Source: Mobula hypostoma
Lineage: Eukaryota
Direction of reading: 5' to 3'
Assembly (NCBI RefSeq): GCF_963921235.1
Contig: NC_086108.1
Span: 14,260,001 to 14,324,000 of the forward strand
DNA length: 64,000 nucleotides
The position numbers and the translations under genes are program-made. The notes beneath the pieces are model-generated. The model saw only the letters and a program-made list of their open reading frames with translations. It ran no database searches and was not told the DNA's origin. The first letter of the stretch is position 1. Each line of letters starts with the position of its first letter. Shown piece by piece: positions 40,580 to 64,000 of this stretch.

Positions 40580-42625
40580 TAGGTTTGTCCCTGATGACTA
40601 CACCTGCAAGAAGTGCAGCTAGTTGCAGCTTTTTACAGAGCACGATGAGCTGTTGATTGACAGGCGATACAGCAAGGTAGTTACACCAAGGTTGCAGGGC
40701 ACAGGTAACTGTTGACCATTAGGAGGGGGAAAAGCAATGGGCAGTCAGTACTGGCTACCCTGTGGCTGATTCCCTCAATAACAAATATATCACTTTGGAT
40801 ACTGTTGGAGGCAATGAGCTGGCAGAGGAAAGCTATAGCAGTCAGGTCTCTGGCACTGAGTCTGTCTCCGTGACTCGGGGTGGGTGGGGGGAGAAGAGAC
40901 ATGCTGTAGTGACAGGGAATACATTGATTAGGAGAACAGACAGGATGTTCTGTCAATGAGAACAGGATTTGTGGATGGCACTTTGCCTCCCAGTGCCAGT
41001 GTCTGAGACATCTCAGACTGAGTCCATAGAGTTCTTAAGTGGGGGGTGGTCGGTGTCTGTGTTGTACCAATAACGAAGGTAGAGAGGGTGATGAGATCCT
41101 GCAAAGTAATTTCAGGGAGTTAGGTGCTAAGTTAAAGGTTTGTGACCTCACTGCAACATGCTAGTGAGGCCAGAATTGGAAGATCACACAGTTGAACACA
41201 TGGCTAAGGAGATGGTGCAGGAGGGAGGGCATCAGATTTTTAGATCATTGGGCTGCCTTCCAGGGAAGATGGGATGGTTTACAACTGAACTAATATCCTT
41301 GCAGAAAGGGTTGCTAGTGCTGCTTTGAAGGGTTTAAACTAGAGCTGAAGGGGGATGGGAATCACAGTGACAGGGCAGATAGTTGTGGGAGGTTGAGCAT
41401 GGTGGCAATAATGTTCTGAATTGCATCGACTTTAATGCAAGGAGTATTGTGGGTAGGGCTGATGAGCTTACATCATGGATAAGCGTATGGAATTATGGTA
41501 ATGTTGGCATCAGTGAAATTTGATTGCAAGAGGGGCAGAACTGGCAGCTCAATATTCAGGAGGGATTAAAGGAGTCAGAGAAAATGTTGTGGTAGTGCTC
41601 AGACAGGACAGACTAGAGAGCTCATCTACTCAGGCTATCTGGATGGAACTAAGGAATAAGAAAGGGATGGCGTTGGGGTTCCTAGGCTTCGTGGCCCTGG
41701 GGATGGGCTGATTCTGTGCCAGTGCTGCCAACTGAAGCTTCGCGGAAGAAAACAGAACATTGGGAACAGCAAATCAACTGTTTGGGCCTCTGTACTCTTT
41801 CTCTTGTTGCTGGGGAGAGTTTGTTGCCAATTCTCAAGTTGGAGATCCCAAAAAAAAAATGGAAAAGACTTTAACACTGTAAATCAGCAAGTTGTTTTGT
41901 CTATGACCCCCCTCATGCTGTGTGACACTTCTCTGCCATTTCATTAGGTGGAGGGAGGGCCTATGACATGTCAAATTGTGAACAATTAGTTTTTGTTGTA
42001 CTGCAGATCATGGTCTTTATTGGGGGTTTGTTATCACATGCTTGGTGGGTGGTGGGTGCTGATGCTTTTTGCAAAAAGTGGGGGAGGGTAAGGGTTGTTG
42101 CATTGCATGGGGGGGCTTTGGGGTTCTTACGCTTTAACTATCACTCATTCTTTGGGACGCACTTCCGTTTTCATGGATGTCTATGAAGAACAAGAATTTC
42201 AGGTTGTATATTGTATACATTCTCTGATATTAAATGGAACTATTGAATACGTTAATGGAATTACACTAAAGTCCACCCATTAGTCAGTAGGATTTAGAGG
42301 AGCAAATGTGTAAAGAGATGTGCAAGAATTATAACATTGTGATTGTCGGTGATTATAACTTTCCACATAAAAGGGCTGGATTGATTAGTTTGTCAAATGT
42401 GTTCAGGTAGGTTTCCTTAATATATAGATGTTCCTTCTACAGAGAACGTGATACCAAATCTCCTATTAGTAAATGAGACAGGGCAGGTGACAAGTGTGTG
42501 TTGGGGAAAACACGTTGGATCTAGTGATCATAATTCCATTAGTTTCAAGATAATTATGGAGAAGGATAGGTTTGGTCCTTGGATTGAGATAATTAATTTG
42601 GAGTAAGGCTAATTTTGATGGGACC
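40580..42625 (+). mobile_element. CR1 ORF1 and endonuclease region, interrupted at about 41690-42247 by a non-autonomous element
   Basis: SLNNKYITLDTVGG, AVVTGNTLIR, FNARSI and IWMELRNKKG motifs. Confidence 0.8.
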
Positions 42626-45050
42626 CGTGTCAAATGCCTTGCTAAAATCCATGTAGACAATATCCACTGCTATTCCTTCATTAACGTTCCTGGAAACATC
42701 ACGGAACAACTCTTTTAAGATTGGTTTCATGTGACCTACCATGCACAAAGCCATGTTGACTATACTTAATCAGTCTATGCTATCCAAATATTTATATATC
42801 TGGTCCCTTAGAATACCTTCCAATAATGTACCCACTACTGTTGTCAGTCTCACTAGCCTATAATTTCCCAGCTTATTCTTAGAGGCTTTCTTAAACAACA
42901 GATCAGCATTATCTATCCTCCAATCCTCTGGCACCTCACCTGTGGATAAGGATGTTTTAAGTACCTCTGCTAGGGCCCCTGCAATTCCGGCACTAACCTC
43001 CCACAAGGTCCAAGGGAACACCTTGTCAAGCCCCGAGGATTTATCCAGCCTAATTCGCCTCAGGACTTCAAGAACCTCCTCCTCTGTAATCCATATATGG
43101 TCCATGACCACACTCCTGTTTTGCCCCATTTCTATAGACTCTGTGTCCTTCTGCTGAGTAAATACATTTAAGATCTTCCCCCATCTTTTTTGGCTCCATG
43201 CATAGAAGTCCACTCTAAGCTCCAATAGGTTTAATTTTGTGCTTTGCTATCCTTTTGCTTCCCTTTGCTCCTAATATATCTGTAGAAGCCTTGGGATTCT
43301 CCTTAACCTTGTTTGCCAGAACAATGTCAAGCCTCCTTTTCACCCTCTGAATTTCCTTCTTAAGTGCTCTCTTGCCTTTCTTATACTCCTCAAATACCTC
43401 ATTTGTTCCTTCCTGCCTTTACCTGCTATGTATGTCCTCCTTCTCTTTATTCATAGTCTCAGTTTCTCTTGAAAACTAAGGTTCCCTAAATCTGTTACCC
43501 TTGCTTTTTAATCTGAGAAGATTGTGAAAACTTTGTACTCTCAACATCTTACAAGGCCTCCCACTTACCAGGTACACCTTTGCCAAAACAACTTGTCCTA
43601 ATCCACACTTGCCAGATCCTTTCTGATACCATCAAAACTGGCCTTTCTCGAATTTAGAATCTCAACCTGCAGACCAGACCCACCCTGCTCCATAATTCAA
43701 AGTTCAAAAGTTCCAGCTAAATTTATTACCAAAATGCATATATGCCACCATATTATACCCTGAGATTTGATTCTTGTAGGCATACACAGTAAATCCGAGA
43801 AAAACAATAGAATCAATGAAAGATTGCATCCAACAGGATGGGCAAACAGCCAACATGAAAAAGACACCAAACTGTAAATACAAAAGAAAAAGAAACAATA
43901 AATATCGAGAACATGAAATGAAGAGTTCTTGCAAGAGAGTCCATGGGTTGTGGGAACAACTCAATGATGGGGTGGATGAAGTTGAGTGAAGTTATTCCTT
44001 CTGGTTGAAGAGCTTGATGGTTGAGGGGTAATAACTGTTCCTTAACTCGGTGGTCTGGGTCATGAGGCCCCTGTACCACCTTCCTGATGGTAGCAATGAG
44101 AAGAGTGGTGGTGGGGCCCCTTGATGAGAGGTGCTGCTTTCCTGTGACAGGGCTTCATGTAGTTGTGTTCAGTGGTGGAGAGGGCTTTACCCATGATGGA
44201 CTGGGTTGTATCCACTACCTTTTGTTGGATTTTTCATTCATGGGCATTGGCATTTCCATACCAGGCATGATGGAACCAGTCATCTCCACTACATATCTAT
44301 AAAAATTTGTCAAAGTTTTAGATGTCATGCCGAATCTTTGCAAACTTTTAAAGAAGTAGAGGTGCTGCCGTGCTTTCTTCATAAATGTATTTACATGCTG
44401 GCCAAGAACAGATCCCCTAAAATGATAACACCAAGGAATTTAAAGTTGCTTATGCTGTTCACCTCTGATTCCCCCAATCTTGAGACGAATGATGTTATAG
44501 AAACATAGAAAACCTACAGCACAATACAGGCCCTTTGGCCCACAATGCTGTTTTCCTGTACATATACTTTAGAAATTATCTAGGGTTACCCGTAGCCCTC
44601 TATTTTTCTAAGCTTCGTACATGTATTCAAGAATCTCTAAAAAGACCCTACTGTATCCACAATCACTAGATTCAAAGTGTTCTCTACATTCGGTTATGTC
44701 ACAGGCCCTGAAGACATTCCGTAATAGGAGATCCAGTTCTTTACAGTCTCTAGTTGGGACCTGTATGTATTGATTGAAGGAATTCTCCTGAACACACTTG
44801 ACAAACTCTATCCCATTCAGCCCTTTTTCAGTATGGGAGTCCCAGTCAAAATGTGGAAAGTTCAAATCAGCTTCTAGTACAATCTTGTGTTTCTTGTAAC
44901 TGTCAACAACCTCTCTACAAATTTGCTCCTCAAAATCCTGCTGACTATTGGGTGGTCTTATAACATAATCCCTCCCGCTCTATTGTATCTAAAATAACTA
45001 AGCCCCAGAACATTAAGCTGTCAGTAGTCCTGTGCCTCCTGCAACTTACA
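42626..45050 (-). mobile_element. CR1 ORF2 fragment interrupted by a Rex1/Babar-like 3' fragment (about 43700-44480)
   Basis: ORF 42770-43225 (DKSSGLD...GEVPEDWR...GNYRLV) and an endonuclease piece NFPHFDW at 44608-44865. Confidence 0.8.
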
Positions 45051-45460
45051 GTAATTTTTACCCCCTCCCCCTTCTCTGTTATTTCATTCCCTATTCTGGC
45101 TCACCTTTTACACTTTCTCTTCACCTCACCTGCTGATCACCTCTAACTGGTGTCCCTCCTCCTTCCCTTTCTCCCTTGGTTCACTCTCCTCTCCCTTTAG
45201 ATTTCTTCTTCTTCAGTCCCGTTACCTCTTCTTTCTGTATCACCTCGCAGCTTCTCACCTCCCCCCTCCCCCACCCACCTAAATGACCCTTCACCGAGCT
45301 TCACCTCTCACACTCTAGTTTGTACTTCTTCCCCTCCCCCATCACCTTCTTATTCTTCGCCCTTCCTTTACAATCTTGATGAAGAGTCCTAGCCTGAAAT
45401 GTTGAATCTTTATTCCTTTCCATTGCTACTGCCTAAACTACTGAGTTCCTTCAGCATTTG
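45050..45460 (+). mobile_element. Decayed Penelope-like terminal repeat
   Basis: Pyrimidine-rich body similar to 5165-5540, with a decayed core ttgatgaag...tgaaatgtt at about 45375-45405. Confidence 0.65.
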
Positions 45461-47725
45461 TTCCTCTTGATGGAAAGCGCATGGAGATGGAGGTCACTGG
45501 GCAGAATCATTGCTCAGCATGGACTAGATGGGCTGAAGGATGTGTTGTAGTACTCTTAAGACCTTATGAAATTACAAGATGATGTTGAGCAGAGGTCAGA
45601 TGGGCGTACTGATGGCAGATGGAACGTAATCCTGATGATCATAAAGCGATGCACTTTGGAAGCTTGCTTAAGGAAAGGAACTAGACAATGAATGGCAGGC
45701 CTCCAGGAGGTATAAAGGAACAGAGAGTCCTCTGTGGGCACTCAAGGATATCTGAAGTTGGTAGCTTAGGTAGATGAGCACCACATAGAGCAGCAGCTGC
45801 CGTGTTCTGGTGAATGGTAAGGCTTTGGTGTAGGTCAGGATTTGGTGAAGAGGCAGAGTTATAATCTGCTAATGTTTGTTCTCTCTCTTTGTAGAAAGGA
45901 CTGGTGATAATGGATTTGCGAGGTAAGTCAGAGGAATGCTCCTCCTGTTAATTGTGGGGCCTTGGGCACATTTCCAGTCTCAGTGGTGACTTCGACCTTT
46001 AATAGGTGTGTCTAGCTGCAGCTCCCGTCAGACCACCTGGGGAGGTTTCAGCTGCAGTTAGACTCTGTAAAGTATCTGGGATGCACAGTATATGGTCGGT
46101 GTCACAATCAGTGAGTTGGTCACACCGCAGGTACCAACTGGTGACAGGAGACCACCATAAGGACTGATGGTGCCCTGTGTTAAACAGATATCGTTTTGGA
46201 TATGACTGTGGTGGCACCAGCAAAGTTGGTTCTGATGCAGAACAAGGAGGGAAACATCTAGGCGAGCAGTAGCAGTGGGGGATTTGTTAGTGATGGGGAC
46301 AGACAGGTGCTTCTGTGGCTGAGTGAGACTCCAGAATGGCCTGCTGCCTCCTTGGTGCCAGAGTCAGAGATGCCTCTTGAGTCAATACGGAACATTCTGA
46401 GGGAGAAGGAGAATAACTAGAGATTATAGTCTCACTGGTACTAACAACACAGGGAGAAGTCCTGCAGAGCAAAATTAGAGGCATAGATATAAAAAATTAT
46501 AGCAGTGTGGGATTTTAAATTTCCCCATTTTAACTGGAATTGCCTTAATGCAAGAGGATTAGATGGGATGGAATTTGTCAGGTGGGTCCATGAAAGATTT
46601 TTGAGACAAGTGACGAGGCTGTGCTCAGACCTTCTTTTGGGAAATAAACTTGAGAAAGTGGTGGAAGTGTTAGCGAGGAAGCATATGGCACAATTCTGTC
46701 AGCGGAATTGAGAAAATGTTAGTCTTCCAGTTGAGGCCTTGAATTGGGTAATGCTTATTTCAGTAACTCGAGAGGGGACCTCGTGAAATTAGACCAGGAG
46801 TAGATGTTGTGGGCAGCACCATCTGACAAATGGGAGTCTTTTAAAGGAGAGTTCGCAAGAGTTCAGAGCCAGTATGTTCTAGTAAGAGTGAAAGGGAAAG
46901 AGAGCAAAATTAGGAAACCTTGGATGTCAAAGAATACTGAAGGTTTGATCGGGGAGAAAATGGAAACAAATGGCAGGTACAGGCAATTTGGAGTAGACCA
47001 TCATATCACTCAGTCCTGGCCCACAGTTCAATATGATTATAGCTGGCCTCAACTCCCGTGCAATAGAGCATAGAATGTTCTGTTCTAATCTGTACCACAT
47101 AGGGACAGGCCCTTCAGCCTAGAATGTTGAGATGAGCTAATTAAACCTGCAATTAAAAGACCTCCTGCTCATATCTCTCTGTTCACTGCATATTTATGGT
47201 GCCCTTTAAAACACGTGTCTCCATCACCTCCCCTGCAAGAGCATTACAGGAACCCACCACTGTGTAAAAACTTACCCCTCACATCTCCTTTGAATTTTCC
47301 ACTTCCCATCTTAAACGCTTGCCCTCAAATGTTAAACATTTCGACCCTGGGAGAAAGATACAAGCTGTCTGTCTATGTTTTGCATAATCTTATAAATGTC
47401 TATCAGGTCTTTGGCACTCCAGAAAAGACAACTAGATTTGTTCAATCTCTCCCCATAGCACATGCCCTCTAATCCAGAGGGCACCCTGATGAAACTCTCT
47501 GCATCCTCTACAAAGCCTCCACATCCTATTTATAATGAGGCTATCAGAAGTGAATGCTATACTCCAGATGTGGCCTAACCAGAGTTGTATAAAGCTGCAG
47601 TATAATTTCCTGACTACTGAACGCAATGCCCTGAATAGTAAAGGCAAGCATTCCACATGCCTTCTTTACCATTCTGTCAACTTGTGCAGCCACTTTCAGG
47701 GAACTATGGACTTGTACCCTAAACT

Positions 47726-48600
47726 CCCTCTGTACAATAAGGGTCTAGTCATTAATTGTGCATTCTCTTTGCATATTAATACTAAGGGTCCTGGCATTAG
47801 CTGTCTATTCCCTCTGTACATTAATACTGTTAAAGGACCAGTCATTAACTGTGTATTCTCTCTGTACATTAACTGTTAAGGGTCCTGTCGCTAACTTTGT
47901 AATTTCTCTGTACATTAACTATTAAGTGTCCTGTCATTAACCGTGCTTTCTCTCTGTACATTAACACTGTTAAGGATCCTGACATTAAGTGTGTAATCTC
48001 TAGTACATTAACTATTAAGGGCCCTGTCATTAAACTGTGCATTATCTCTGTACATTAACCATGCTTTCTCTCTGTACATTAACTGTTAAGGATCCTGTCA
48101 TTAACTGTGCATGCTCTCTGTACATTAACTGTTAAGGGTCCTGTCACTAACTTTTGTAATTTCTCTGTACATTAACTGTTAAGTGTCCTGTCATTAACTT
48201 TGTAATTTCTCTGTAAATTAACTGTTAAGTGTCCTATCATTAACCGTGCTTTCTCTCTGTGTACGTTAACACTGTTAAGGATCCTGACATTAAGCGTGTA
48301 ATCTCTCTACATTAACTGTTAAAGGTTCTGTCACTAACTGTGCATTCTCTCTGTACATTAACTCTGCATTCTGTCTGTACATTGACTGTTAAGGATCCTG
48401 TCATTAAACCGTGCATTCTCACTGGACATTAACTGTGCTTTCTCTCTGTACATTAACTGTGCATTCTGTCTGTACATTAACTGTTAAGGACCCTGTCATT
48501 AAACTGTGCTTTCTCTCTGTACATTAACTGTGCTTTCTCTCTATACATTAACTGTTAAGGACCCTGTCATTAAACTGTGCATTCTCTCTGTACATTAACA
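47726..48600. repeat. Minisatellite, about 46-bp unit (two CATTAACTGT-containing sub-units), derived from CR1 sequence
   Basis: Consensus TCTCTGTACATTAACTGTTAAGGGTCCTGTCATTAACTGTGCATTC with interspersed half units of about 24 bp; begins seamlessly from the minus-strand CR1 at about 47090-47730. Confidence 0.92.
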
Positions 48601-48759
48601 GAACAGAGGTAAATAGGATAAAGATGGTAAATAGATCGTCAGCAGAGATTGTGGCTGTTGTGTTCCTGAATGCCTGTCTCTCAAATTTGATGCTGCTTGC
48701 TGAGTTTCTCCAGCATTTTGTCTCTGTCCCTTGAATTTCCAGCATCTGCAGATCTTCTC

Positions 48760-50210
48760 GTCTCAAATTTGATTAAATTTTCTGAAGAGGTGACGAGGAG
48801 GATTGAGTATGTGGGGACAGTTGACATTGTCTACATGGCCCTTAGCTTGGCCTTTGACAAGGTTCCTCATGGTATGTTGACCTGGAAGATTAGATCTAGC
48901 TAATTGGGTAAAATATTAGCTTGGAGGAAGGGGTCAGAGGATGTATTCAGATTGGGGCTTTGTGACTAGTGGTGTGCAACAGGGGTCAGTGCTAAGTCCA
49001 TATTTGTCATCTGTATTAATGATTTGGATGACAATACTTGTTAAATGGTTTGTAAGTTTGAGGATGACACCAAAATTGGTGGTGGTGTGGGCAACGAAGA
49101 AGATCATTTAAGGTTACAACAGAATCTAGATGGGGAAGTAGGCTGAGGAATGGTAGATAGGATTTAACTCTAAAAAGTGTGAGGTGTTGCATTTTGGTAA
49201 GTTAAACCAGGGCGGGACTTGACACTAAATGGTCGGGCCCTGAAAAGTATTGTAGAACAGAGAAACGGAAGGTTACTGGTTCATAGTTCCATGAAAATGG
49301 TGACACAGATGAGCAGAGTGGAGAAGGAGGTGTTTTGCACACTGGGCTTCATCAGTCAGTTCAGGAGTAAGGATGTCATGTTGCAGATGAACTAGTCATT
49401 GGTGAGACCACACTTGGATTACTGTGTGCAGTTCCAATTGCCCAGGTGTAGGAAGGATGTCATTAAACTGGAAAGGATGCAGAAAAGTTTAACAAGTTTG
49501 TCAGGATTCCTGATGGTCTAGTGGTTAGGATTTGGTGCTTTCATCGCCCTGGACCGGGTTGGATTCCTGGTTAGTAAAGATAGTTTTGGGGATGTCAGAG
49601 GTAAGTTTATTTCATGCAGAGAGTGGTAGGTGTGAAACATGCTGTCATGGGTGGTGGTAGAGGCAGATACATTAGCCACATTTAAGAGACCCTTAGTTTG
49701 GAGATAGAAAAAATGGTGAGATATGTAGGAAGGATGGATTAGATTGACCTTGAGTAAGTTAAAAGGCTGGCACAATATTGTGGCTGAAGGGCCTGGACTG
49801 GAAGCTATGAGTGACTATATAGGCTGGGTCTTTTTTCCCTGGAGAGTAGGAGGCTGAGGGGTGACACTTTAGTGGTTTATGAAATCATGAAGGGAATAGA
49901 TAGGGTGAGTGGTCACCTTTTTCGCAGGGTAGAGGAGTTTAGAGTGTATAACTGAGAGGGAGGAGAGTTAAAGGGAACCTTAGTAGCAACCTTCTCGTGC
50001 AGTGGTGGGTATATGAACAAGCTGGCAGAGGAAGTGGAAGAGATGGGTACAATTACAAGATTTAAAAGACAGTTGGACAGGTTCATGGCCTGGAAAGATC
50101 TAGAGAGATATGGGCCTGTTAGAAGGATAAGGGACACTCTTAACTGAGACTAGCTCAAGTAGACATCTTGGTCAGCTTGGATGAGCGAGGCCAAAGTTTC
50201 CATGTTATGG
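48760..50210 (+). mobile_element. CR1 LINE RT/3' end with internal tRNA-CR1 insertion
   Basis: DIVYMALSLAFDKVPH, GVQQGSVL and KFEDDTK motifs and a CR1 3' UTR. Confidence 0.85.
49507..49578 (+). pseudogene. tRNA-Glu(TTC)-derived pseudogene
   Basis: TTCCTGATGGTCTAGTGGTTAGGATTTGGTGCTTTCATCGCCCTGGACCGGGTTGGATTCCTGGTTAGTAAA aligns end to end with the vertebrate tRNA-Glu sequence as I recall it. Anticodon TTC; stems and T-loop mutated, many as CpG decay. Confidence 0.85.
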
Positions 50211-51105
50211 AATCTATGAATCGTCTTTATTTGTGATGGAATTGTTTAGCTCTGTCTTTTGTATGCTGGTTTTGCCACTCAGTTAGTTCTTCTGCACTCA
50301 TTGAATTAGTTGGTTCCCTACATTAATGGTGATTGCATATTGTGGAATATACCAGCCATGAGGTTATGTATTGTAGTGATCGACATTTCAGCTGCTGAAT
50401 ATCTATATGATACTTCCCAATTCATGCTGCCACTGTCACTTCTGTTTTTGGACATTTGCTGACAAACTGATCTATCAAACAGAAGAGATTCTGCAGATGC
50501 AGGATAGCCAGAGACCTTTTTGAAAAGGAAAGAAGAAGCCAGAATAAGAATTTGGGGGAGTGGGTGAGGAGTACAGGCTAGAAGGTGACAGGTGAAGCCA
50601 GATGAGTGGGGGAGGGGGTGATGAAGTGAGATTCTACTGTGGGAGATTTACAGTTAACCTACCAGCCACATTTATTTGAGGAGGATGGAGCAGTTTGATG
50701 AAACTCTTCCATTTACTGGGTGGTTGTTAAACTTTGTGTAACAGCAGTGGAGGTCGGGATTTAACAAGGATCATTGTAACCGTGAGACAGCAGCTGTCCA
50801 AGTTGTGCCATTGAAAAGTTGTTTGGATCATTTGTTTTACCAGAGTTCAGAGGTGGGACCACTGGATTTTTCACACTGATTCATAGCTTTGGAAGCATGG
50901 GAAAATTCCAGATTCGCAGAATGCCCGAAGTCTGGAATTGTGACAAAAAGTGTGAAGATTCGTAATGGCACACCCACAAAACGGCTCACAGAATGTGCTG
51001 AGAAAGCCTGATGAAATTTAAAATTTAAAGAAAAATGTAAAGTGATGCACATTGGCAGAAAGAATAAGGAGAGACAATATAGATTGAATAGCACAGTTAT
51101 AAGTA

Positions 51106-51421
51106 AAGTAAGTAAAGGCATCCGTTAGTCTTGCGAGACCATGGATCTGCGCCTGGAAAGTCTTCACTCTCCAGGGTGCAGGCCTGGGCAAGGTTGTGTG
51201 GAAGACCAGCAGTTGCCCATGCTACAAGTCTCCCCTCTCCACGACACCGATGTTGTCCAAGGGAAGGGCATTAGGACCCATACAGCTTGGCACCAGTGTC
51301 GTCGCAGAGCACTGTGTGATTAAGTGCCTTGCTCAAGGACACAACACGTTGCCTCGGCTGGGGCTCAAACTCACGACCTTCAGATCGTTAGACGAATGCC
51401 TTAACCACTTGGCCACGTGTC
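51106..51421 (-). mobile_element. Full-length tRNA-derived SINE with 14-bp TSD
   Basis: Minus-strand head cacgTGGCCAAGTGGttaaggc...GAGTTTGAGCC (Pol III A and B boxes), (TTAC)n tail, and TSD CACAGTTATAAGTA at 51092-51105 and 51422-51435. Confidence 0.9.
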
Positions 51422-54400
51422 CACAGTTATAAGTAGAGTACAGGAATAAACAAAATTTAAAAGAGACAGCACAGATTGAGAGAGGGGTTTGTAGACTGTG
51501 GGGTGCTGCGATTTCATAAATAGAGACATCGAGAAGGAGATGATGTTGGTCTGTGTAGAACACTGGTTGAGCCTTAGCTGGAGTTGCCCCTCAGGTCCCT
51601 TTTAAATCTTTCTCCTTTCACCCTAAATCTATGAGTTCTAGCTTTGAACTCTGCTACACTGAAGAAAAAATATTACTGCCCATTTTATCTACCATTAAAA
51701 TTTCATACTTCTCTAAGATTGCCCCTCATTCTCCTACATCCCAAGGAATAAAGACCTATCCTGGGGCTAAGCCAAAGACCCTTTTATTCTCTCTAGCCAC
51801 AGGCAATGTCCTGGGGGACTGGAGGGTAGCAAATGTTGTTCCATTGCTTAAGAAGGGAAATAAAGATACTCAAGGAATGTATTGGCTAGTGGATGTCATG
51901 TCAGAGGTAGGGAAATTTTTGGAGAGGATTTTTAATGATACAATTTATACACATTTGGAAGAGCATGACCCAAATAGGGGCAGTCAGCATGGCAGGTCAT
52001 GTCTTACTAACTTGGTTGAGTTTTTGAGGTAGTGACCAAGGTGATTAATGCTGCAGTGGTTAGTGGATGTTGTCTGCATGAACTTGAATAAGGCAAAGTT
52101 TTTCATTGTAGGCTGAATCAGAAGATTTGGATACATAGGGTCTATCTTGAACTGGTGAAAATTGGGTAAAATGTTGTTGGGTGGGTTAGTAAATTTTCAG
52201 ATAACACAAAGATTGGTAGAGTTGTGGATGTTTAATTTAAGCAAGTGTAAAGTGCTGTTCTTTACAAGGTCATGAGTCATACAACACAAAAAGGCCCTTT
52301 GGCCCAATTGATCCATGCTGTCCAAGATGCCCTTCTAAACTAGTCCAATTTGGCTCCATTTGGGCCATATCCTCCTTAACCTATCATATCCATGCATTTC
52401 TTCAAATACATTTAAAGTGTTGAATTACCTGCCTCAGCCACTTCCTCAAGCAACTCATTCCATATACTGACCACCCTCTGAGTGAACAAAAAGTTGCCCC
52501 GCAATTTTAAACTTCTCCCCTCCTGCCTTAAACTTGTACCCTCTAGTTCTTAGTTCATGATTTTATACTTTAGATCATTCCTCATTCTCCTACACTCCAG
52601 TGAAAACAGTTCAACCTGGCTCAGCCTTTCTCCAGAACTCAGTCCCTCAAGTTCAAGAACATAAGATTTAGGAGCAGGATTAGGCCATCTGGCCCATCGT
52701 GCCTGCTCCACCATTCACTAAGATCATGACTGATCTGGCCATGGACTCATTTCCACCTACCTGCCTTTTCCCCATAATCCTTAATTCCCCTAACTTGCAA
52801 AAAAAAACCCTCTCAAAAGAACCCTCCTCAAAGATTTCCTCTACACTTTTTCCAACTTACTGGTAACTTTCCTATAGCAGAGTTACTAAAACTGAGCAAA
52901 TCTTGTAGAACCACAACTAATATCCCAAATTCTGTATTCACTGCCCTGACTAATGAAAGCCAGTGCCCGAAGCTGCCTTGATCAGTCTACTTGTGATGCT
53001 ATTTTCAGTGAATGATGTACTTTTACTCAAAATGCCCTTCTGTTCTACAACACTCCTCAAACCTCCTGTGCTTGGTATGTCTTCCCAAAGTGCAACATCT
53101 TGCACTTACCCAAATTGCCATTCTTCAGCCCACATGCACAGTTGATCAAGATCTACCATTTTCATTCTCAATGACACTACCTATTTTAGTATCCCTTGTA
53201 GATTCTTATCCAAAATACTGAGATAGCTGACAAGTAGTAATGAGCATCGCAATGAATCCTAGTCATAGGCCTGCAGTCCGAAACCACTAGTCATAGGCCT
53301 GCGGTCCAAAAAACAAATCTCCCCCATCACCCTCTGCTTCCTATCCTCAAGCTAATTTTCTATCCAATTAGCTAGCTCTTGCTAGATCCAATGCAGTCTA
53401 ACATTCTATAACAGTCTGCACATGGAACGCTATCAAAAGGTCTTACTGATGTCTGTATAGGCCATGTCAACTGCCCTGCCTTCATCACCTTTCTTGGTTA
53501 CTACTTCAAAAAAACTCAATCCTAATCATGAGACAGGATCTCCCATGCATAAAGCGATGCTGACTGTCCCTAATCACCCCATGTTTTTCCAAATGCTTGG
53601 ATACCTTTTTCCTCAGAATCTCTTCTGGTAAATTGCTTACCACAGTTGTTAGGCTTACTGGTTTATATTCTGGTCGAAGTTCCCAGATTTTTCTTTGTAG
53701 CCCTTCTCAGATAAAGGCACAACATGAGCCACCCTCCAGTATTCCAGCACTTCACTCAATGCTAATGATAATGCATATATCCCAGCGAGGGCACCTGTAA
53801 TTTATTTAGAGTATATTAACTATATGCTCATCACTGAAGGAGATATAATTGAGTTGACATCTCTGACAAGGTCAGATGCAGTTGATCTAATAACAATAAC
53901 AACGGCAGTGATTTAAATCCATCAAATATAATTGCTTTTAAGCTCTTGTATCTCTCTAGAATGAAGCTCCACTGTGTAGGTAAGGTAAATAGAGAAGAAA
54001 ATAAAAGGAAAGCTTTCTGAAAAGATTAAAACCAATGATTAAATGTCAAAAGCAATAATATTGCTGGATGAGTGAGGGGAATAGAGGGAAGTTGTATGAA
54101 GTTGGTAGGCCTTGCCTCTTTTTTTTACAAACGTACAACAGTACAATATAGGAACAGGCCTTTGGCCTACAATGACTGTGCCAACCATCGTGCCAAATTA
54201 AACTAATCTCATCTGTTGTATATGGCCCCTGTCCCTCTATTCCTTGCCTGTTCACATATCTGTATACTTGCCTGTAAACATTGCTACCTGTATAGTTTCC
54301 CCTTAGATTTGACTACCCAAAATGTATTACCTCACTCTTATTGTACCTGAATTAACCTCCATCTTTCATTTCTCTGCCTGAATTTCCAGCTGGTTCATGT

Positions 54401-55133
54401 ATCCTTCTGTTTCCTTTGATAACATTCTTCCCTTCCTCTGTCTTCGCCAATTTTGTATAATAAACCAACTTATTAAATAGATCAGTTACATTTTCTCTAT
54501 TGTAAACTATCGAGGTCCCAGCAGTGATCCCTATGAAATACCACTGATCACTGACCTTCATCCTGAATAACACCCTACTACTGTGGTCCTTTGTCTTCCA
54601 TGGCAAAATCAGTTTTGGATCCAATTTGGCATCTTACTATAAATCTTATAGCATTTGTTGTTTTGGACCATCTTAGAGATAAAATTTGGTTTTGATGAAA
54701 AGTTACCCAGTTTTGTTTTTTGCTGGTTGAAGATGCCTCGTCCCAGTGCCTGTATCTTTCTACGTTTTAAAGCTTGTGTATCACATACTGATTAATTTTA
54801 AATACAGTGGGATTTTCTATATCTATCTCAATGAATTTCAGATCCCTACCACTCTCTCTCCTAGTTATTGATCTTTTTAGAATCATAGATGTGTAGCTCA
54901 CAAACAGGCCTTTCAGCCCAACTAGTCCATACCATAAGACCGTAATACAGGAGCAGAATTAAGCCATTTGGCCCATTGCATCAGAACCGCCATTCCATCA
55001 TAGCTGACTTATTATCTCCCTTCACCTAATTCTCCTGCCTTCTTCCCATAACCTTTGTCACCCTGACTAATCAAGAACCTAACAATCTCCACTTTAAGTA
55101 TACTCAATGACAAAACTGCTCACAGTACTCCAA

Positions 55134-55614
55134 TCTGATGGCATGAACATTGACTTTTCAAACTTCCGCTAATGCCCCACCTCCCCCTTGTACCCCATCT
55201 GTTACTTATTTATATACATACATTCTTTTTCTTTCTCTCCTTTTTCTCCCTCTGTCCCTCTCACTATACCCCTTGCCCATCCTCTGGGCTTTTCTCCCCC
55301 CTCCCCCTTTCCTTCTCCCTGAGCCTCCTGTCCCATGATCCTCTCATATCCCTTTTGTCAATCACCTGTCCAGCTCTTGGCTCCATCCCTCCCCCTCCTG
55401 TCTTCTCCTATCATTTTGGATCTCCCCCTCCCCCTCCCCCTCCCACTTTCAAATCTCTTACTAGCTCTTCTTTCAGTTAGTCCTGACGAAGGGTCTCGGC
55501 CCGAAACGTCGACTGTACCTCTTCCTAGAGATGCTGCCTGGCCTGCTGCGTTCACCAGCAACCTTGATGTGTGTGGCTTGAATTTCCAGCACCTGCGAGA
55601 TTTCCTCATGTTTG
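55134..55614 (+). mobile_element. Young Penelope-like terminal repeat with 13-bp TSD
   Basis: Starts in the ORF end (DGMNIDFSNFR*), followed by a pyrimidine-rich UTR and an intact hammerhead motif. TSD CACAGTACTCCAA/CACAATACTCCAA at 55121-55133 and 55615-55627. Confidence 0.88.
55479..55514 (+). ncRNA. Minimal type I hammerhead ribozyme motif (sense to host gene)
   Basis: agtc-CTGACGA-a-gggt(ctcg)gccc-GAAA-c-GTC-gact; predicted cleavage after C55510. Confidence 0.8.
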
Positions 55615-57225
55615 CACAATACTCCAAGTGCGGTTTGACCAGTGCCTTATAAATTCTCAGCATCACATCCTTGCTCTTATATTCAAGTCTTATCCATACA
55701 AATACAAACATTACATTTGCCTTCCTTACCACTGAATACTGCAAGTTAACCTTTAGGGAAACCTGCACAAGGCCTCCCAAGTCCCTTTGCACCTCTGATT
55801 TTTGAATTTTTTTCCCCATTTAGAAAATAGTCTATGCTTTTATTCCTTCTACCAAAGTACATGACCTTATACTTCCCTACACTATATTCCTTCTGCCACT
55901 AATTTGCCCATTCTCTCAATCTGTCTAAGTCGCTCCTTCAGCACTACCTGCCCCTTCACCTATCTTTGTATCATCTGCAAACTTGGCCAGAAAATCATCA
56001 ATTCTGTCATCCACATCACTGACAAATAATGTAAAAAGCAGTGCTCTCAACACTGACATCTGCGGAACACCACTAATCACTGGTAGCCAACCAGAACAGG
56101 CTTTCTCCATTCCCACTCTTTGCCTCCTGCCAGTCATCCAATCTTCTATCAATGCTAGATTGTTCCTGTAATACCATAGGCACTTACCTTCTTTAGCAGC
56201 CTCATCTGTGACACCTTGTCAAGAGCCTTATGAAAATCCAAATAAGCAACATCTGCTAACTCTCCTCAGTCTATCCTATCTGTTATTTCCTGAAAGAATT
56301 CCAAGAGATTTTTCAGGCAAAACAAATTTCCTGTAAGGAAATCATGTTGACTTTGGCCTACTTTATCATGTGTTTCCAAGTATCCCAAAACCTCATCATT
56401 AATAATGGGCTCCAATATCTTCCCAACCACTGAAGTTGGGTGCAATAGCCTACAATTTCCTTTCTTCAACCTCCCTGCCTTTAAGAGTAAAGTGACATTA
56501 ATGATTTTTTAGTCGTCTGGAACCATTTCAGAATCTACTGATTTTTGAACGATTATTACTAATCCCTCCACAATCTCTTCACCTACCTCTTTCAGAACCA
56601 TGTGGTGTAGTCCATCTGATCCAGATGAGTTATCTATCCTCAAGAGGTTTCAGGATCCTAAGCACCTTCTCCTTAGTAATAGTAACTACACTCATTAATG
56701 CCTCCCTGACACTCTTGAAAATGTAGCATACTGCTAATATCTTCCACAGCGAAGACTGATGCAAAATACTTATCTAGTTCATCTGCCAATTTTTTTGCAT
56801 CCCATTGCTACTTCATCACTGTCATTTTCCAGCACTCTTGCCTCTCTTTTATTCTGTATATATCTGAAAAAAAAACCTCTTTGATATCCTACTTTATATT
56901 ATTGACTAGCTTAACTTCATATTTCATCTTTTCCCTTCTAATGATTTTTTTAGTTGCCTTCTGTTGGTTTTTAAAAGCCACAGTTGCCTCATCATCCCTT
57001 TAGAATACCATTATATCTTTGGGATGTATCTATCCTGTGCCTTTTGAATTGCTCCCAGAAACTCCAGCCATTGCTGCTGCCGACGTCCCTGATAGAGTCC
57101 CCTTCTAATCAACTTTGGCCAGCTCCTCTCTCATGTTTCTGTAATTCCCTTTACTCCAGTGTAATACTGATATATCTGACTTTATCTTCTTCCTCTCAAA
57201 CTGCATAGTGAATTCTATCATATTA

Positions 57226-58655
57226 TCAGAATCAGGTTTATTATCACCGGCATGTGTTGTGAAATCTGTTAACTTAGCAGCAGCAGTTCAATGCAATACA
57301 TAATATAGAAGAAGAAGAAGAAGAAGAAAAAATAAGTAAATCAATTACAATACATGTATATTGAATAGATTAAAAATCGTACTAAAAAACAGAAATAATA
57401 TATATTAAAAAAGTGAGGTAGTGTTCAATGTCCATTCAGGAATCGGATGGTAGAGGGGAAGAAGCTGTTCCCGAATCGCTGACTGTGTGCCTTCAGGCTT
57501 CTGTACCTCCTACCTGATGGTAACAGTGAGAAAAGGGCATGCCCTGGGTGCTGGAGGTCCTTAATAATGGACACTGCCTTTCTGGGACAGCACTCCCTGA
57601 AGATGTCCTGGGTACCTTGTAGGCTAGTACCCAAGATGGAGCTGACTAGATTTACAACCCTCTGCAGCTTCTTTCGGTCCTGTGCAGTAGCCCCCCCCCC
57701 CCCCGCCCATACCAGACAGTGATGCAGCCTGTCAGAATGCTCTCCTCTGTACATCTATAGAAGTTCTTGAGTGTATTTGTTGACATACCAAATCTCTTCA
57801 AACTCCTAATGAAGCATAGTCGCTGTCTTGCCTTCTTTATAACTGCATCGATATGTTGGGACCAGGTTATATCCTCAGAGATCTTGACACCTAGGAACTT
57901 GAAGCTGCTCACTCTCTCCATTTCTGATCCCTCTATGAAGATTGGTATGTGTTCCTTCGTCTTACCCTTCCTGAAGTCCACAATCAGCTCTTTTGTCTTA
58001 CTGACGTTCAGTGCTAGGTTGTTGCAGCGACACCACTCCACTAATTGGCATATCTCACTCCTGTATGTCCTCTCGTCACCGTCTGAGATTCTAGCAACAA
58101 TGGTTGTATCATCACCAAATTTGTAGATGCCATTTCACCTCTGCTTATCCACACAATCATGGGTATAGAGAGAGTAGAGCAGTGGGTTAAGCACACACCC
58201 CTGAGGTGTACCGGTGTTGATCGTCAGTGAGGAGATGTTATCACCAATCCACACAGATTGTGGTCTTCCGTTTAGGAAGTCAAGGATCCAATTGCAGGGG
58301 GAGGTACAGAGGCCTAGGTTCTATAACTTCTCAATCAGGATTGTAGGAATGATGGTGTTAAATGCTGAGCTATAGTCGATGAACAGCATCCTGATTTAGG
58401 TGTTTGTGTTGTCCAAGTGGTCTAAAGCCATGTGAACAGCCATTGAGATTGCATCTACCGTTGACTATTGTGGTGATTGGCAAATTGCAATGGGTTCAGA
58501 TCCCTGCTGAGGCAGGAGTTCAATCTAGTCATGACCAACTTCTCAAAGCATTTCATCACTGTAGATGTGAGTGCTACTGGGCGATAGTCATCAAGGCAGC
58601 CCACATTATTCTTTTTAGGCACTTGTATAATTGTTGCCTTTTTGAAGCAAGTGAG
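57226..58655 (-). mobile_element. Rex1/Babar-like LINE RT and 3' end
   Basis: LFIDYSSAFNTI, EWCRCNNLALNVSKTKELIVDFRK and NFYRCTEESILTGCITVWYG motifs; TTCTGA tail. Confidence 0.9.
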
Positions 58656-58919
58656 AAGTTATGATCACAGGTTCCTTTACCTTGAGCTCTTTAATTAAAT
58701 CTAGTTCATTACACATAATATCCAATCCAGGATTATCTTTGTCCCAAATGGGCCCAACCACAAGCTGCTCTAAACGGGTATCTTGTAGGCATTCTACAAA
58801 TTCCCTCTCTTGGGATCCAGCACCAACCTGATTTTCCCCATCTAGCTCCTTGACTACTGTAGCATTGCCCTTTTGACATGCCTTTTCTACCTTCTGTTGT
58901 AATTTATAACCCTCATTCT

Positions 58920-59920
58920 GGAAAATTACAGGAGGTAGGGATTCAGAGTAAGGTGTGTGAATGGGTGTAGAATTGGCTCAAAATGAGAAAACAACGAGTT
59001 ACGGTGAGAGGATTATTTTCACACCTAGAAGATGTTCAAAGAGGAGTTACACAAGGATTGGTTTTGGGGCCGCTGCTGCTTTTAATTTACATTAATGGTT
59101 TGGATAAGTGCACAACAAATAAACTAGTAAGGTTTGCCAGTGACACAAAATTAGAGGGAACAGGCTAATAACATTCAGGCACAGTTAGATCTAAACAAAA
59201 TCCATATGTGGGCAGATAAGGCAGATGAAATTTAATGTAAGTAAATGTAAAATATTACATAAAAGTATTGATAGAAATATACAATTGAGGGGGTCTTGAG
59301 TTAGAAAGTGCACTTTATGACAAGGATTTGGGCATCCTGGAAAACTCATCACTATCAACATCTAGATAATGCACGGAAGTGATTAGGAAGGCTAATAGAA
59401 TGCTGTACTGTATAATGTGCTCAGTGGAGTTCAAGTCTAGAGACGTTCTCCTTAAGCTGTATAATGTGCTTGTGAGGCCACACCTTGAGCACCGTGTGCA
59501 GTTTTGGTCTCTATACTGTGTGAGCAATGTGAAGACACTGGAGGGAGTCCAGAGAATGGCAACTAGACTCTTTCCAGGTCTGCAGGGTATGAGTATGATT
59601 GAAAGACTTAAATCTTTGTAGCCTAAATAGATGTAGAATTGAGAGGAGATATGGTAACATGATAGCATGATAGAAGTGTCCAAAATCATTAAGGGTATAA
59701 GTAAAGTGGATGACAGCTGCACTTTAAAATTAATCCGTCATCAAGGAATCATGGATGGAAAATGGTTAAAGGAAGATTTCAGACTCATATCAGGAAGCAT
59801 TTCTTTACACAGTGAGTTGTGGACACGTGGAACAAACTGTAGGTTGTGTAGTTGAGAGTAGTACCTTGGAGTCTTTCAAATCCAAACTCAATAGTTATTT
59901 CAACACACTATCTGAATAGG
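58920..59920 (+). mobile_element. CR1-like LINE RT/3' fragment (distinct AT-rich subfamily)
   Basis: GVTQGLVLGPLLLLIYINGL...FASDTKL and LYNVLVRPHLEH..QFWS motifs. Confidence 0.85.
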
Positions 59921-59959
59921 AATTTGTTGGGCTGCTCTTGTCAAAAACTTTCTAATGTT

Positions 59960-60700
59960 CTAATGTCATTGGTTCCAATATATACCATGACCTTTGGCTG
60001 CTCACCTTCCCTCTTGAGAATCTTCTGCAGCCTCTCTGAGACATCTTGGACCTTAGCACCTGGGTGGCAACACACCATCCTTGCATCTCTTTCGTGGCCA
60101 CAAAATCTGTAATCCCTCCCCCTATCTAGTCTCCTATCACTGTCACTCTGCCTGGCTTTGCCCTTCTTTGCTGAGCCTGAGAGCCAGTTACAGTGCTACT
60201 GTCCTGGCTGCTGCTGCTGTGCCTGATAAGTCCTTCCTCCACTGCATGCCCCCCCCCACCCTCCAGCAGTATCCAAATGGGTATGCTTGCTGCTGAGGTG
60301 AATAGCCACATGGGAACCTTGTGCTGACTGCTTCTTCCCTTTCTTCTCCTGGTGGTTACCCATTGCTATCTGAAGTGAGACCAGTAAAAGTCTCATCTTT
60401 GAGGTTTTCAGCCTTCTGGATGATTCTGACTACATCTAGCTCCAGCTTTATGTAAGTAAATCTAAAGTATTACATATAGGAATTAGTTTATCAGTCGGAA
60501 CTGAAGTTGGTTGCACTTTCTGCAGATGTTGTCATCAGGAAAACTATAAGGTACCCTGAAATCCCGCTCTCACAGGGGAAGCATTTGACTGCCTGAACTA
60601 CCATCTTTCCAACCCCTGTAATACCCCTAACTTCGCAAGCTTACGTGAGTTCTAGCCTGTGTCTGTTCTCACCGAAGTCTGCTGAGCCGAACTTTGGCCA
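59960..60700 (-). mobile_element. CR1 ORF1/5' fragment
   Basis: VTVIGD motif and similarity to 11936-12560. Confidence 0.65.
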
Positions 60701-61525
60701 CTCCAACAATAGCTGCTCCACTTGCACCTTGGTTCTTTTTTAATTGGCCCCTACTGAGTCATTAAGAGATCATTATGATTGCATCCTGCTGAGAAGTTTC
60801 AAAAGGCGGAAGCCCTTTTTACATCTTGCACTGCTTCACCAATGAATGTCTTCTCATGATGATTGCAGACCGCTGAAAATTTAACAAGATTCCATCTAAG
60901 CTCAACACATTTTCTTGTGATTGACATGGATTCCTGTACCTTCCTACTTGCCCGAGTGTCTTATAAATGTTGTTAATGTACGTTCCTCAAGCACTTCCTC
61001 TGGGAGCTCGTTTCATGTACCCACTATCCTCTATGAAAATAACTTATTTTACAGGTTCCTATCAAATCTCTCCCCTTTCACTTTAAACCTATGTCCTCCA
61101 TGTTCTTGGTTCCCTAATCCTAGGAAAAAGACTGTGCATATTTATTTATTGACCCTCTCTTTGCCCCTCATGGTTTTGTACAGCTCTATAAGATCACCAT
61201 GCTTCTACTTTCCAATGCATACAGCTTCTGCTCAACATCTCTCCTTAACTCAGTCTCTCAAGTCCAAGCAAATTTCCTCTGCACTCTTCCCAACTTAATG
61301 GCATCTTTCCCATAGCAGGGCGAGCAAAGTGGAACACTGTAATCCAAATGCAGCCTTGTACAAGTGCAAAATAACATCCCAAATTCTATACTCAGTGCCC
61401 TGATTGATGAAGGTCTGTGTACGAGGCAATTTCTTCTCTGTACTGTCTGCCCATGATTGAAATGAGCGTTTGCTAAGAGAAACAGTACTTTCCATCGATT
61501 CCAGGCATGTTACTTATAAATGGAT

Positions 61526-62110
61526 AATAAACACAAAATAATCTGCAGATGCTGTAAAAGATCAAAGCAACACTTTCAGTACGCTGAATGAACTCAGCAG
61601 ATCAGGCAGCATCAGTCAGAAACGATGAGTGGACGTTTCGGGCCGGAACCCTTCATCAGGACTGAAGAATGAAAGATGGGGAAGGATTTGAAGAATGCAG
61701 GATCTCCCGGTAGCCACCCACTTCAACTCTGCTTCCCATTCCCATTCATATATGTCCATACATGGCCAGAGGAGCAACACCTCATATACTGTCTGGGTAG
61801 TCTCCAGCCCCTTGGTATGAACATAGAATTCTCCAACTTCCGGTAATTCCCTCCCCCTCCCTTCCTCTATCCCTATTTCACTCTACACCTCCCCCAGCTC
61901 CCTCATGGTTCCGCCTCCTTCTTCTACTACCCATTGTTTTCAGGGCTATGACGTCAATGCTTCCCCTCCCCCACCCCTTTGTCTTTCCGATTACTGGTCT
62001 ATCCACTGACGCTACAAGCATTCTTCAAATCCTTCCCCATTCTTCAGTCCTGACGAAGGGTTCCGGCCCGAAACGTCGACTCATCGTTTCTGACTGATGC
62101 TGCCTGACCT
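61526..62110 (+). mobile_element. Penelope-like 3' fragment with inverted terminal-repeat copy and 13-bp TSD
   Basis: EEQHLIYCLGSLQPLGMNIEFSNFR* remnant; about 61590-61698 is an inverted copy of about 62018-62110; TSD CTTATAAATGGAT at 61513-61525 and 62111-62123. Confidence 0.88.
62046..62081 (+). ncRNA. Minimal type I hammerhead ribozyme motif (sense to host gene)
   Basis: agtc-CTGACGA-a-gggt(tccg)gccc-GAAA-c-GTC-gact; predicted cleavage after C62077. An antisense partner lies at 61628-61663. Confidence 0.8.
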
Positions 62111-64000
62111 CTTATAAATGGATGCATCTCATTCTAATCTTCCCTCAGTTCTAAAGAAAACAACTCTGCTGTAGCTATTCTCTGCTAAGCTATTCAGGCC
62201 TGACAATATCTTAAATGTCCTCTCTACTTGGTGTCCTCTCTCACACCTAAACTTCCATTCTGTAATATGGTGATCACAGAAATGCACAGTACTGCAGCTG
62301 TGGTCTAGTTAGAATTTTACAGCATACAAACATGCTCCCTTTGTCAAAAAGGAGGAATACCCCATACATCTTCAAGTTACTTCAGGAGGAACATAGGGAT
62401 ATATTTTACCTGAACATTCAATATAGTCACATGAACCAAAATTATATTAGATGTATTAACAGGTTTGAAGGTGGATAAGTTGAGGTATTGTAGTCAGCTG
62501 TGAAAGGTAAGGAAGGAGATTGCTGGATCTTTGGCAACATAAGAGGTGTCGAGAACTCCAAATCTGGTATCTTTATTGAAGAAGGTAACAGGAGCTAAGC
62601 CAGTTATTACAGCTGTAATATCAGTGGTAAGGAAATCAGTAAAAAAAAACATTTTGCGGGACAGCAATCATCTGCACTTGATAGATGGAGATTTAATTAA
62701 GGATACTCGATTGAGGTCTTGACTGATAAATTTGGCTGAATTTTTTAAATGCTCAAATAAAGTAGGCAGTCAGTATCTTTTTCCCTGGGTTGAGATGTCT
62801 AAAATTACAGGGTATATGCATTTAAGATGAGATGGAACAAGCTCAAAGCAGATGTATAGCACGTGTTTTTTAACATAGAGAGTGGTAGATGCCTTATGTG
62901 TGCTGCCAGGAGTAGTAGTGCAAGCCAAATATGATGGAGGCATTTAAGAGTGTCAGAAATAGACACTGGAATGTACAGAGGGGATATCGACATTGTTTAG
63001 ATAGGAGCGATATAGGCATTATGTAGACAGGAAGGGTACGAGTGTTCTTTAAGCAGAAGGGATCAGTTAGGTTAGGAATTTAATTAATAGTTTAATTTAC
63101 TCAGCACATCGTGGCCTGTTCCTGTGTCATACTGTTCTCTGTTCTAAAGAAGTCCTATGTGTATGATTGAGTGTAGTGTTAGTAATGTATTTCAGATGGA
63201 TTTCAATTGTCCAACTTGGGAGACTAGTCCAGAGGGTAAGAGCCTGTTAGATCTAGTGCAATATGAATTACGTGGAGATAGTTTCACCTTAGGTTCAGCA
63301 CACTGGTACCGCCCGGGGAGGGACATGGGAGAAACAGTCAGTGCAGGTTACCCTGTGGCTGTCCTGCTCAATAATAAGTATATTGGTTTGGAGAAGGGTC
63401 TTGGCCCAAAATGTAGACTACCTAATAATTTCCATAGACCTGCCTGACCTGCTGAGTTCCTCCAGCATTTTATGTGTGTTGCTTTGTTTTGGATACGGTT
63501 GCGTGGGTCAACCTAGCTGAGGAAACTCACAGCAGTCAGATCTCGGGCACTGAGCCTGGCTCTGTGATTCAGAAGGGAAGAGGAAGAAGAGGTGAGAAGT
63601 AGTGATAGAGGATTCGTTGGTTATGGGAACATACAGGAGGGTGTGCAGAAGAGAACAAAGTTCCCGGATGATATTCATTGTTCATTGACTATATTTAAGA
63701 GGGAGTTAGATATGGCCCTGGTGGCTAAAGAGATCACGGGGTATGGAGAGAAGGCAGGTACAGGGTTTCTTAGTTGGATGATTAGCCATGATCATACTGA
63801 ATGGCGGTGCAGGCTCGAAGGGCCGAATGGCCTATTCCTGCACCTATTTTCTATGTTTCTATATATTGCCTTCCAGGTGCCAAGATCAGGGACATCTCAG
63901 ATTGAGCCTATAGCATAATTAAGAGAGAGGGTGAGCAGCCTGAGGTCATGGTCCACTTTGGTACTAATATAGGCAGGAAGGCTGATGAGGTCCTGCAAAG

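Follow-up and report, generated by a model that had tools for sequence, protein, structure and literature searches.

Two hammerhead motifs in a calcium-channel intron

The window, a 64,000-nucleotide stretch of the Mobula hypostoma genome, contains part of a gene for a Cav2 alpha-1 subunit on the plus strand (Table 1). In a phmmer search against solved structures, exon 3 matched Cav2.1, Cav2.2, and Cav2.3 chains, and the best single stretch was to Cav2.3 (91.1 bits). Judged by its sequence, the host gene is most like CACNA1E (Cav2.3). Exon 4 begins at window-equivalent position 117136, so two hammerhead motifs described in an earlier note on this DNA (here A and B) both lie in sense orientation within one intron. 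That note had placed them on the sense strand of a single calcium-channel intron, and the borders of exons 3 and 4 identify it as intron 3. A third perfect sense copy is located in the same intron at 106606, outside the window.

Table 1. Features of the Cav2 locus and of the two Penelope-like element (PLE) insertions
Feature	Position	Strand	Remarks
Cav2 alpha-1 exon 2	38560..38665, start approximate	+	Open frame, splice signals
Cav2 alpha-1 exon 3, most like Cav2.3 (CACNA1E)	39116..39255	+	phmmer; AG/GT borders
Intron 3, 5' part	39256..64000, continues to window-equivalent 117135, ~78 kb total	+	Exon 4 located in neighboring stretches
Left target-site duplication, insertion A	55121..55133	+	13 bp, 1 mismatch to right copy
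Insertion A, 5'-truncated PLE, subfamily A	55134..55614	+	Last 12 GIY-YIG frame codons, then terminal repeat (pLTR)
Minimal type I hammerhead A	55479..55514	+	Cleavage predicted 3' of 55510; inverted partner absent within 3 kb
Right target-site duplication, insertion A	55615..55627	+	
Left target-site duplication, insertion B	61513..61525	+	13/13 identical; empty-site contig in run X7
Inverted pLTR arm of insertion B	61526..61698	-	Antisense hammerhead copy at 61628-61663; inverted repeat I17
Sense part of insertion B	61698..62110	+	GIY-YIG frame end, then pLTR
Minimal type I hammerhead B	62046..62081	+	Predicted cut after 62077; 34/36 nt predicted paired with 61628-61663
Right target-site duplication, insertion B	62111..62123	+	

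The core, stems, and loops of both motifs read as the earlier note had described them. Each 36-nt motif consists of a helix I of AGUC/GACU, the box CUGACGA, one extra A, a helix II of GGGU/GCCC, and GAA-ACGU-C, with a helix II loop of CUCG in A and UCCG in B. The CUGANGA and GAAA boxes and a UH cleavage triplet are present in both. Minimal hammerheads (min-HHRs) were described in the pLTRs of metazoan PLEs by Cervera and De la Pena in 2014 (PMC4209133), the source of the defining features for helix I, helix II, and the extra nucleotide. Motifs A and B fall within the published helix I length of 4 to 5 bp and have G10.1-C11.1 in helix II and an extra nucleotide after position 9. Both lack a helix III loop, positions 15.2-16.2 form a palindromic ACGU in each, and a nested dimer can be drawn. 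Their identification as PLE terminal-repeat hammerheads of the minimal type I, which would need to dimerize through ACGU, fits the published class as well as PLE anatomy.

A motif search, suggested in the earlier note, gave a divided answer. A minimal-hammerhead descriptor matched 35 times in 1.55 Mb (three Cav2 genes) versus 0 times in each of five shuffles, which puts the motif above chance sequence, although the 35 matches are copies of one repeat lineage and are not statistically independent. In contrast, a scan with Rfam covariance models returned no hammerhead among eight matches at E ≤ 10; the best of these, mir-3926 at 6142-6218, was rejected as a head-to-head pLTR palindrome. Alone, each 36-mer folded no better than shuffles (z = -0.96 and -0.93). 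Compensatory changes in helix I or II were absent among the 35 matches from this one lineage, where changes were one-sided only. A search for further hammerhead families that might show covariation yielded 1,478 matches, and the first 100 listed were almost all decayed copies of the same lineage.

Two separate insertions of one Penelope-like family

Motifs A and B belong to separate 5'-truncated PLE insertions of different subfamilies, each with its own 13-bp target-site duplication. Insertion A, which is 90% identical over 451 nt to a longer family copy (in L056), is nested in an older LINE fragment, and both of its flanks match one LINE. Insertion B spans 61526-62110 in all. Its inverted arm is 94 to 96% identical to subfamily B ends, its sense part matches family copies that adjoin RT and GIY-YIG frames at 88% in an alignment of 455 columns, and its own GIY-YIG frame end is broken, with ~42 nt missing. 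Unrelated sequence, 6.4 kb long, separates A from B. Insertion B is absent from a contig of a second organism (run X7), which joins 61512 to 62111, so this insertion is not conserved; orthologous conservation, as expected of a domesticated intronic ribozyme, was not found for B in this one contig, and no contig orthologous to the site of A was seen.

Longer copies of the family carry frames for RVT_1 (E = 7e-7, just under the cut-off) and GIY-YIG (E = 9e-5), and the peptide and repeat that close these frames are those of insertions A and B. The order of RT and then a C-terminal GIY-YIG endonuclease fits an EN+ PLE. The longer copies also have a C-x3-C-x2-C linker before the endonuclease, a feature of the Neptune and Nematis clades (PMC8557442). 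A hammerhead in the repeat 3' of the frame, 5' truncation, and an adjacent inverted pLTR, all features of PLEs, were each found. No full-length tandem unit was seen among the copies examined, and the four extended copies, truncated or inverted units, show no direct pLTRs around a full-length frame. Among the papers listed by literature searches on shark and elasmobranch Penelope elements, none was on this family, judged by the listings; the supplements of PMC4209133 and of a 2026 preprint (10.64898/2026.07.22.740005) could include it.

Copy number, strand, and folding argue against a cis dimer

The earlier note had proposed that A and B are compatible monomers that could pair in cis. Pairing across 6.5 kb, with both copies cut, would sever the intron or release a 6.6-kb ribozyme-bounded RNA and so tune channel expression. 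In favor of this proposal, no other two of the 35 intact copies in the three genes lie on the same strand within 7 kb of each other. However, with 35 copies, a single pair of this kind does not exceed chance. Exact genome-wide matches numbered 12,508 for the core and 41,113 for a one-letter variant (0 for reversed-pattern controls). From these two copy numbers, 147 or 2,649 same-strand pairs within 6.6 kb are expected by chance, and two motifs at this distance are therefore unsurprising. Counted by eye in the first 100 matches listed for each of two core searches, close same-strand pairs numbered 1 and 4. The same kind of count in one of these searches, again over the first 100 listed, gave 20 inverted pairs. 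In the dominant subfamily, a G-U pair replaces G10.1-C11.1.

Strand was counted across the three Cav2 genes (1,550,400 bp). All PLE copies together were 95 sense and 91 antisense. Intact copies showed no bias in these genes (19 sense, 16 antisense; P = 0.74), in a test of limited power (95% interval of the sense share, 0.37 to 0.71). One LINE control was antisense biased (26 sense, 49 antisense; P = 0.011), and a second was unbiased (63 and 68). Within the host gene, intact copies leaned sense (13 versus 7; strict form, 5 versus 0, P = 0.06), while those in the two paralogues leaned the other way (6 sense, 9 antisense). The sense excess in the host gene was dropped once the paralogues had been added. 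With the pair expected from copy number, no strand bias, and insertion B missing from another organism, the proposed effect on channel expression is not supported.

Folding predictions bear on the same proposal. The fold-back of insertion B, with a predicted duplex of more than 100 bp, had a z of -13.7, and 0 of 20 shuffles were as stable. Locking of motif B by its inverted arm, an outcome that the earlier note had itself held against its proposal, is predicted by computation only; the partner is transcribed first, 400 nt ahead. Helix II is predicted to form its first pair with a probability of 4.7e-22 in B and 3e-20 in the third sense copy, compared with 0.41 in A in its local context. In nearest-neighbor energies, which leave out Mg2+ and tertiary core contacts and are uncalibrated on a known dimer-cleaving motif, the antisense arm forms duplexes of -68.3 kcal/mol with B and -61.3 kcal/mol with A, the active dimer reaches -14.7 kcal/mol and, at 1 M and without any loop cost, is 9.9 kcal/mol less favorable than two free monomers, and the loop cost for A-B corresponds to an effective concentration of about 2e-7 M. 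The compatibility of the two monomers stood: cores, helices, and ACGU palindromes are intact and match each other, and a mixed A-B dimer is a nested structure with an energy equal to that of homodimers. Yet cutting of the channel transcript by such a dimer is not supported by these models, in which B is locked.

Probable passengers in the pre-mRNA

Very probably, the motifs are hammerheads of two independent 5'-truncated PLE insertions in Cav2 intron 3 and are likely inert passengers in the pre-mRNA. Going by the literature, the motif would serve the PLE itself, acting on transcripts of tandem elements, which it would cut as a dimer or with element protein. Copy B is predicted to pair over a long stretch with the inverted arm upstream of it while it is being transcribed. 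Copy A, without a free partner nearby, would prefer an inactive, rod-shaped fold, and the same antisense arm could also capture it. If B is locked and A lacks a free partner, little or no cleavage of the intron would follow. Published minimal PLE hammerheads are reported as inactive monomers with low activity as dimers (PMC4209133), and for the anole element, no RNA-seq ends are reported where its hammerhead would cut (PMC11167929). Counting against inert passengers, copy A partly keeps helix II in its local context and lies 62 kb ahead of exon 4, so that even slow cutting would be given many minutes.

We regard it as very unlikely that copy A alone is cut slowly through PLE protein or through pLTR-bearing nuclear RNA in trans; splicing would survive, so the cut would be tolerated and play no regulatory role. 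The absence of a nearby inverted partner for A and its partly kept helix II would permit this. The pLTR bin was the deepest of 30 in three of four runs, in contigs summed over the family and with an RNA origin that is a guess, and the anole hammerhead cleaves when element protein is added (PMC11167929). These four came from 15 runs with small shares and consist of contigs, in which RNA starts and ends are not visible, so they give no evidence on expression or cleavage. Splicing can survive co-transcriptional intron cleavage (PMC4410947, citing Dye et al. 2006); this would account for the absent strand bias. However, antisense copies are as frequent as sense copies, and perfect antisense duplexes should therefore outcompete a 12-bp dimer.

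If the insertions affect the channel transcript at all, the effect could be noncatalytic, with the fold-back of B serving as an A-to-I editing substrate or a pyrimidine tract as a weak cryptic acceptor; we consider this reading very unlikely. The long duplex predicted in B would suit editing, and a pyrimidine tract ending in AG directly precedes the motif in both subfamilies; in Drosophila virilis, helix I marks the end of a Penelope intron (PMC4209133). Two observations count against these effects: PLE copies lack strand bias, and inverted pairs are very common. We would give equally little credence to a broader scenario. In it, sense introns of this genome would hold intact PLE hammerheads by the tens of thousands; those left free, copy A among them, would be cut in vivo through element protein or trans partners, nicking long neuronal pre-mRNAs including Cav2.3, and the inverted arm made at insertion would be an off switch that decides which copies can cut. 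The cis dimer is extremely improbable. Tuning of a neuronal gene by a ribozyme in its intron is documented for Cpeb3 (PMC10919898); published dimer activity is low even when copies adjoin (PMC4209133).

Insertions A and B are one more locus of a known motif class; the finding is ordinary and, as found, matters little. Were the cis dimer, or cleavage of any kind, to prove real, transposon ribozymes would be acting on the transcript of a host channel gene, and within the literature surveyed this would be the first case of PLE hammerheads active in vivo. The function of PLE hammerheads has been called unclear (PMC8557442), and the ray family offers a handle on it through its huge copy number, the natural occurrence of both locked and unlocked copies, and its dominant G-U subfamily.

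Comparison with known systems

Compared with the min-HHRs of PMC4209133, helix II is shorter here (4 bp, versus 7 to 8 bp in Schistosoma) and copies are more numerous (>50,000 including the variant, versus 4,000 to 9,000 in coelacanth and Xenopus). As far as consulted, that paper names no cartilaginous fish; its supplements could. Full-length tandem units, as in Neptune and Nematis PLEs (Craig et al. 2021, PMC8557442), were not found among the family copies examined. In other respects the family resembles these C-terminal EN+ elements, with strong 5' truncation, RT followed by GIY-YIG, an inverted truncated copy directly adjoining the 5' end, and, in longer copies, the CX2-5CxxC linker, a likeness that would suit either clade. 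Like Anolis Poseidon PAc (Frangieh et al. 2024, PMC11167929), it is a vertebrate PLE with a pLTR hammerhead, but PAc belongs to another clade, Penelope/Poseidon, without the linker zinc finger. Activity of the PAc hammerhead has been measured (it needs element protein and is dispensable for insertion).

The HDV-like ribozyme of Cpeb3 (PMC10919898) and the human RECK and C10orf118 hammerheads (PMC10761166) are likewise sense-strand motifs in host introns. Those ribozymes are single-locus, conserved, and active as monomers, with a half-life of 2 to 3 min for Cpeb3. In contrast to such domesticated ribozymes, A and B are young repeat copies without helix III, and B is absent in another organism and predicted to be locked. 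The non-LTR retrozymes described by Li et al. in 2026 (preprint 10.64898/2026.07.22.740005) are also PLE-derived type I hammerhead repeats and are reported from a chondrichthyan genome as well. We rejected a retrozyme reading of this locus because tandem units are lacking; A and B also have separate target-site duplications. Retrozymes are head-to-tail tandem units of 51 to 972 bp, whereas A and B are separate insertions from different subfamilies.

Two intact hammerhead motifs in intron 3 of a Cav2 gene

Reading of the sequence confirmed the two 36-nt motifs, A and B, that an earlier note had located by eye; they differ only in loop II. An Rfam scan did not report a hammerhead. The host gene, on the + strand, encodes a Cav2 alpha-1 subunit, with one frame in the window matching solved Cav2.1, 2.2, and 2.3 chains (best single stretch, Cav2.3). 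Neighboring stretches of the contig containing the window (G000:C50) place the end of exon 1 at window-equivalent position -123869 and the start of exon 4 at 117136. With exon 4 starting there, both motifs are sense and inside intron 3 (~78 kb), so that exon positions agree with their assignment to one calcium-channel intron. Intron 1 (~162 kb) starts with ATATCCTT, from the exon 1 end at G000:C50:14136132, and closes with a branch-like TTCCTTGAC followed by AC. These ends point to an AT-AC minor-class intron, which we take to be usual for such channel genes.

Features in the window and, above position 64,000, at window-equivalent positions (PLE, Penelope-like element; pLTR, PLE terminal repeat)
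Feature	Position	Strand	Remarks
Palindrome, near-perfect	6065-6276		91-nt arms, 99%; two head-to-head pLTR ends
G-U motif, example	6147-6182	-	
Decayed LTR-retrotransposon-like pol frames	~8137-11817	+	intron 1; protease, RT, integrase-like by eye
Intron 1 3' end	38543-38559		
Cav2 frame	39116-39255		
Tandem array	47729-48599		intron 3; units of 46 and 24 nt
tRNA-like sequence	49507-49578	+	35 bits (Rfam); probably decayed tRNA or SINE head
Insertion A	55134-55614		within older LINE piece; 13-bp duplication, one mismatch
Pyrimidine tract + AG	55455-55478		
Motif A	55479-55514	+	
Insertion B	61526-62110		perfect 13-bp duplication
Inverted repeat arm of B	61526-61698		
Sense piece of B	61698-62110		
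GTAATT donor-like site	61843		subfamily B; on stop codon
Pyrimidine tract + AG	62020-62047		
Motif B	62046-62081	+	
Nested inverted PLE ends	105800-107350		intron 3; G000:C50:14365700-14367400
Third perfect motif	106606	sense	intron 3; in nested PLE-end cluster; predicted locking arm 760 nt upstream

Predicted folding and ability to cut

The proposal that A and B form a compatible dimer survives only in part. A nested, active mixed dimer can form on paper (predicted -14.7 kcal/mol), but two free monomers are more stable by 9.9 kcal/mol and the best inactive dimer by ~16, in energies that are uncalibrated and lack the tertiary contacts of the core. Closing the 6.5-kb loop adds a further cost, equal to an effective concentration of ~2e-7 M. 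Each lone 36-mer is predicted to prefer a rod pairing core GACG with cut-site CGUC. Independently of the limits on dimer energies, motif B is predicted to be locked in the fold-back duplex that the earlier note had named as telling against cleavage: 61560-62160 folds with a z of -13.7, 34 of the 36 nt pair with 61628-61663, and the first helix II pair has a probability of 4.7e-22. The inverted arm would be transcribed first and motif B afterwards. This arm could capture motif A too (predicted -61.3 kcal/mol), and the copy at 106606 is predicted to be locked likewise (3e-20). Because copy A is partly free (predicted helix II pair probability, 0.41) and 62 kb of intron remain downstream, its slow, assisted cutting may be conceivable.

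When the inverted arm is left out, the predicted fold pairs motif B with pLTR sequence upstream of it in the same insertion, at 61951-61995 (helix II pair probability, 0.02), possibly a built-in inhibitory fold.

Copy number and strand bias

Across 3.48 Gb, the exact core with G10.1-C11.1 matched 12,508 times and its G-U variant 41,113 times, the two patterns differing slightly in length; reversed-pattern controls gave no genome-wide matches. The strict form alone would give an expected 147 same-strand neighbors within 6.6 kb, and both forms together 2,649. The host gene (605 kb) holds 63 copies, with 13 sense and 7 antisense among those intact. Among the 35 intact copies of three Cav2 genes, no two besides A and B lie on the same strand within 7 kb of each other, in line with chance expectation. 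An Rfam mir-3926 match was false, produced by the head-to-head pLTR palindrome.

Any harm done by sense copies to long pre-mRNAs would be expected to show as their depletion. Three Cav2 gene bodies (1,550,400 bp), with exons checked on the sense strand, yielded 186 copies, of which 95 are sense and 91 antisense. Intact copies showed no sense depletion in these genes (19 sense, 16 antisense), including those with no inverted partner up to 1 kb away (15 and 8; P = 0.21); non-intact copies split 76 to 75. One LINE control was antisense-biased (26 sense, 49 antisense; P = 0.011) and another unbiased (63 and 68). For intact copies, the sense share has an interval of 0.37-0.71, which excludes strong purging and is compatible with mild purging. 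Tolerated cutting would give the same strand picture, because splicing can survive intron cleavage, according to PMC4410947.

The commonest motif form has U instead of C11.1. It outnumbers the G12 change at the same CpG (2,522 copies) by a factor of 16 and the G8 change (2,806) by a factor of 15, so it spread from source elements and does not reflect decay; this G-U closing-pair subfamily has amplified most. Core-breaking G12 and G8 changes occur at levels that decay would give. One substitution thus hints that the core is kept in active elements, to the element's benefit.

Comparison with known Penelope-like elements

Each motif lies 200-300 nt past the stop of a frame sharing its terminal peptide with the GIY-YIG frames of longer family copies. 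These longer copies match RVT_1 and GIY-YIG and carry a C-x3-C-x2-C linker, a type that PMC8557442 treats as a mark of Neptune/Nematis-type PLEs. Alignable sequence between insertions A and B is confined to short stretches (74-82% identity) around motif and frame end, so they represent two subfamilies and two insertion events. In run X7, sequenced from another organism, one contig (depth 7.9, ~91% like the window) joins 61512 directly to 62111; by this single contig, the insertion B site appears empty there.

In both subfamilies, a pyrimidine tract and AG lie directly before or overlap helix I. Together with the donor-like site, they could delimit a pLTR intron, as in Drosophila Penelope.

The motifs are real, of a class already known, and ordinary in placement. 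Feature by feature, both match the minimal hammerhead of PLE terminal repeats as set out in PMC4209133, and both follow GIY-YIG-type frame ends, which bears out the earlier attribution to such repeats. The inverted-plus-truncated layout of insertion B is likewise the PLE insertion footprint described in PMC8557442.
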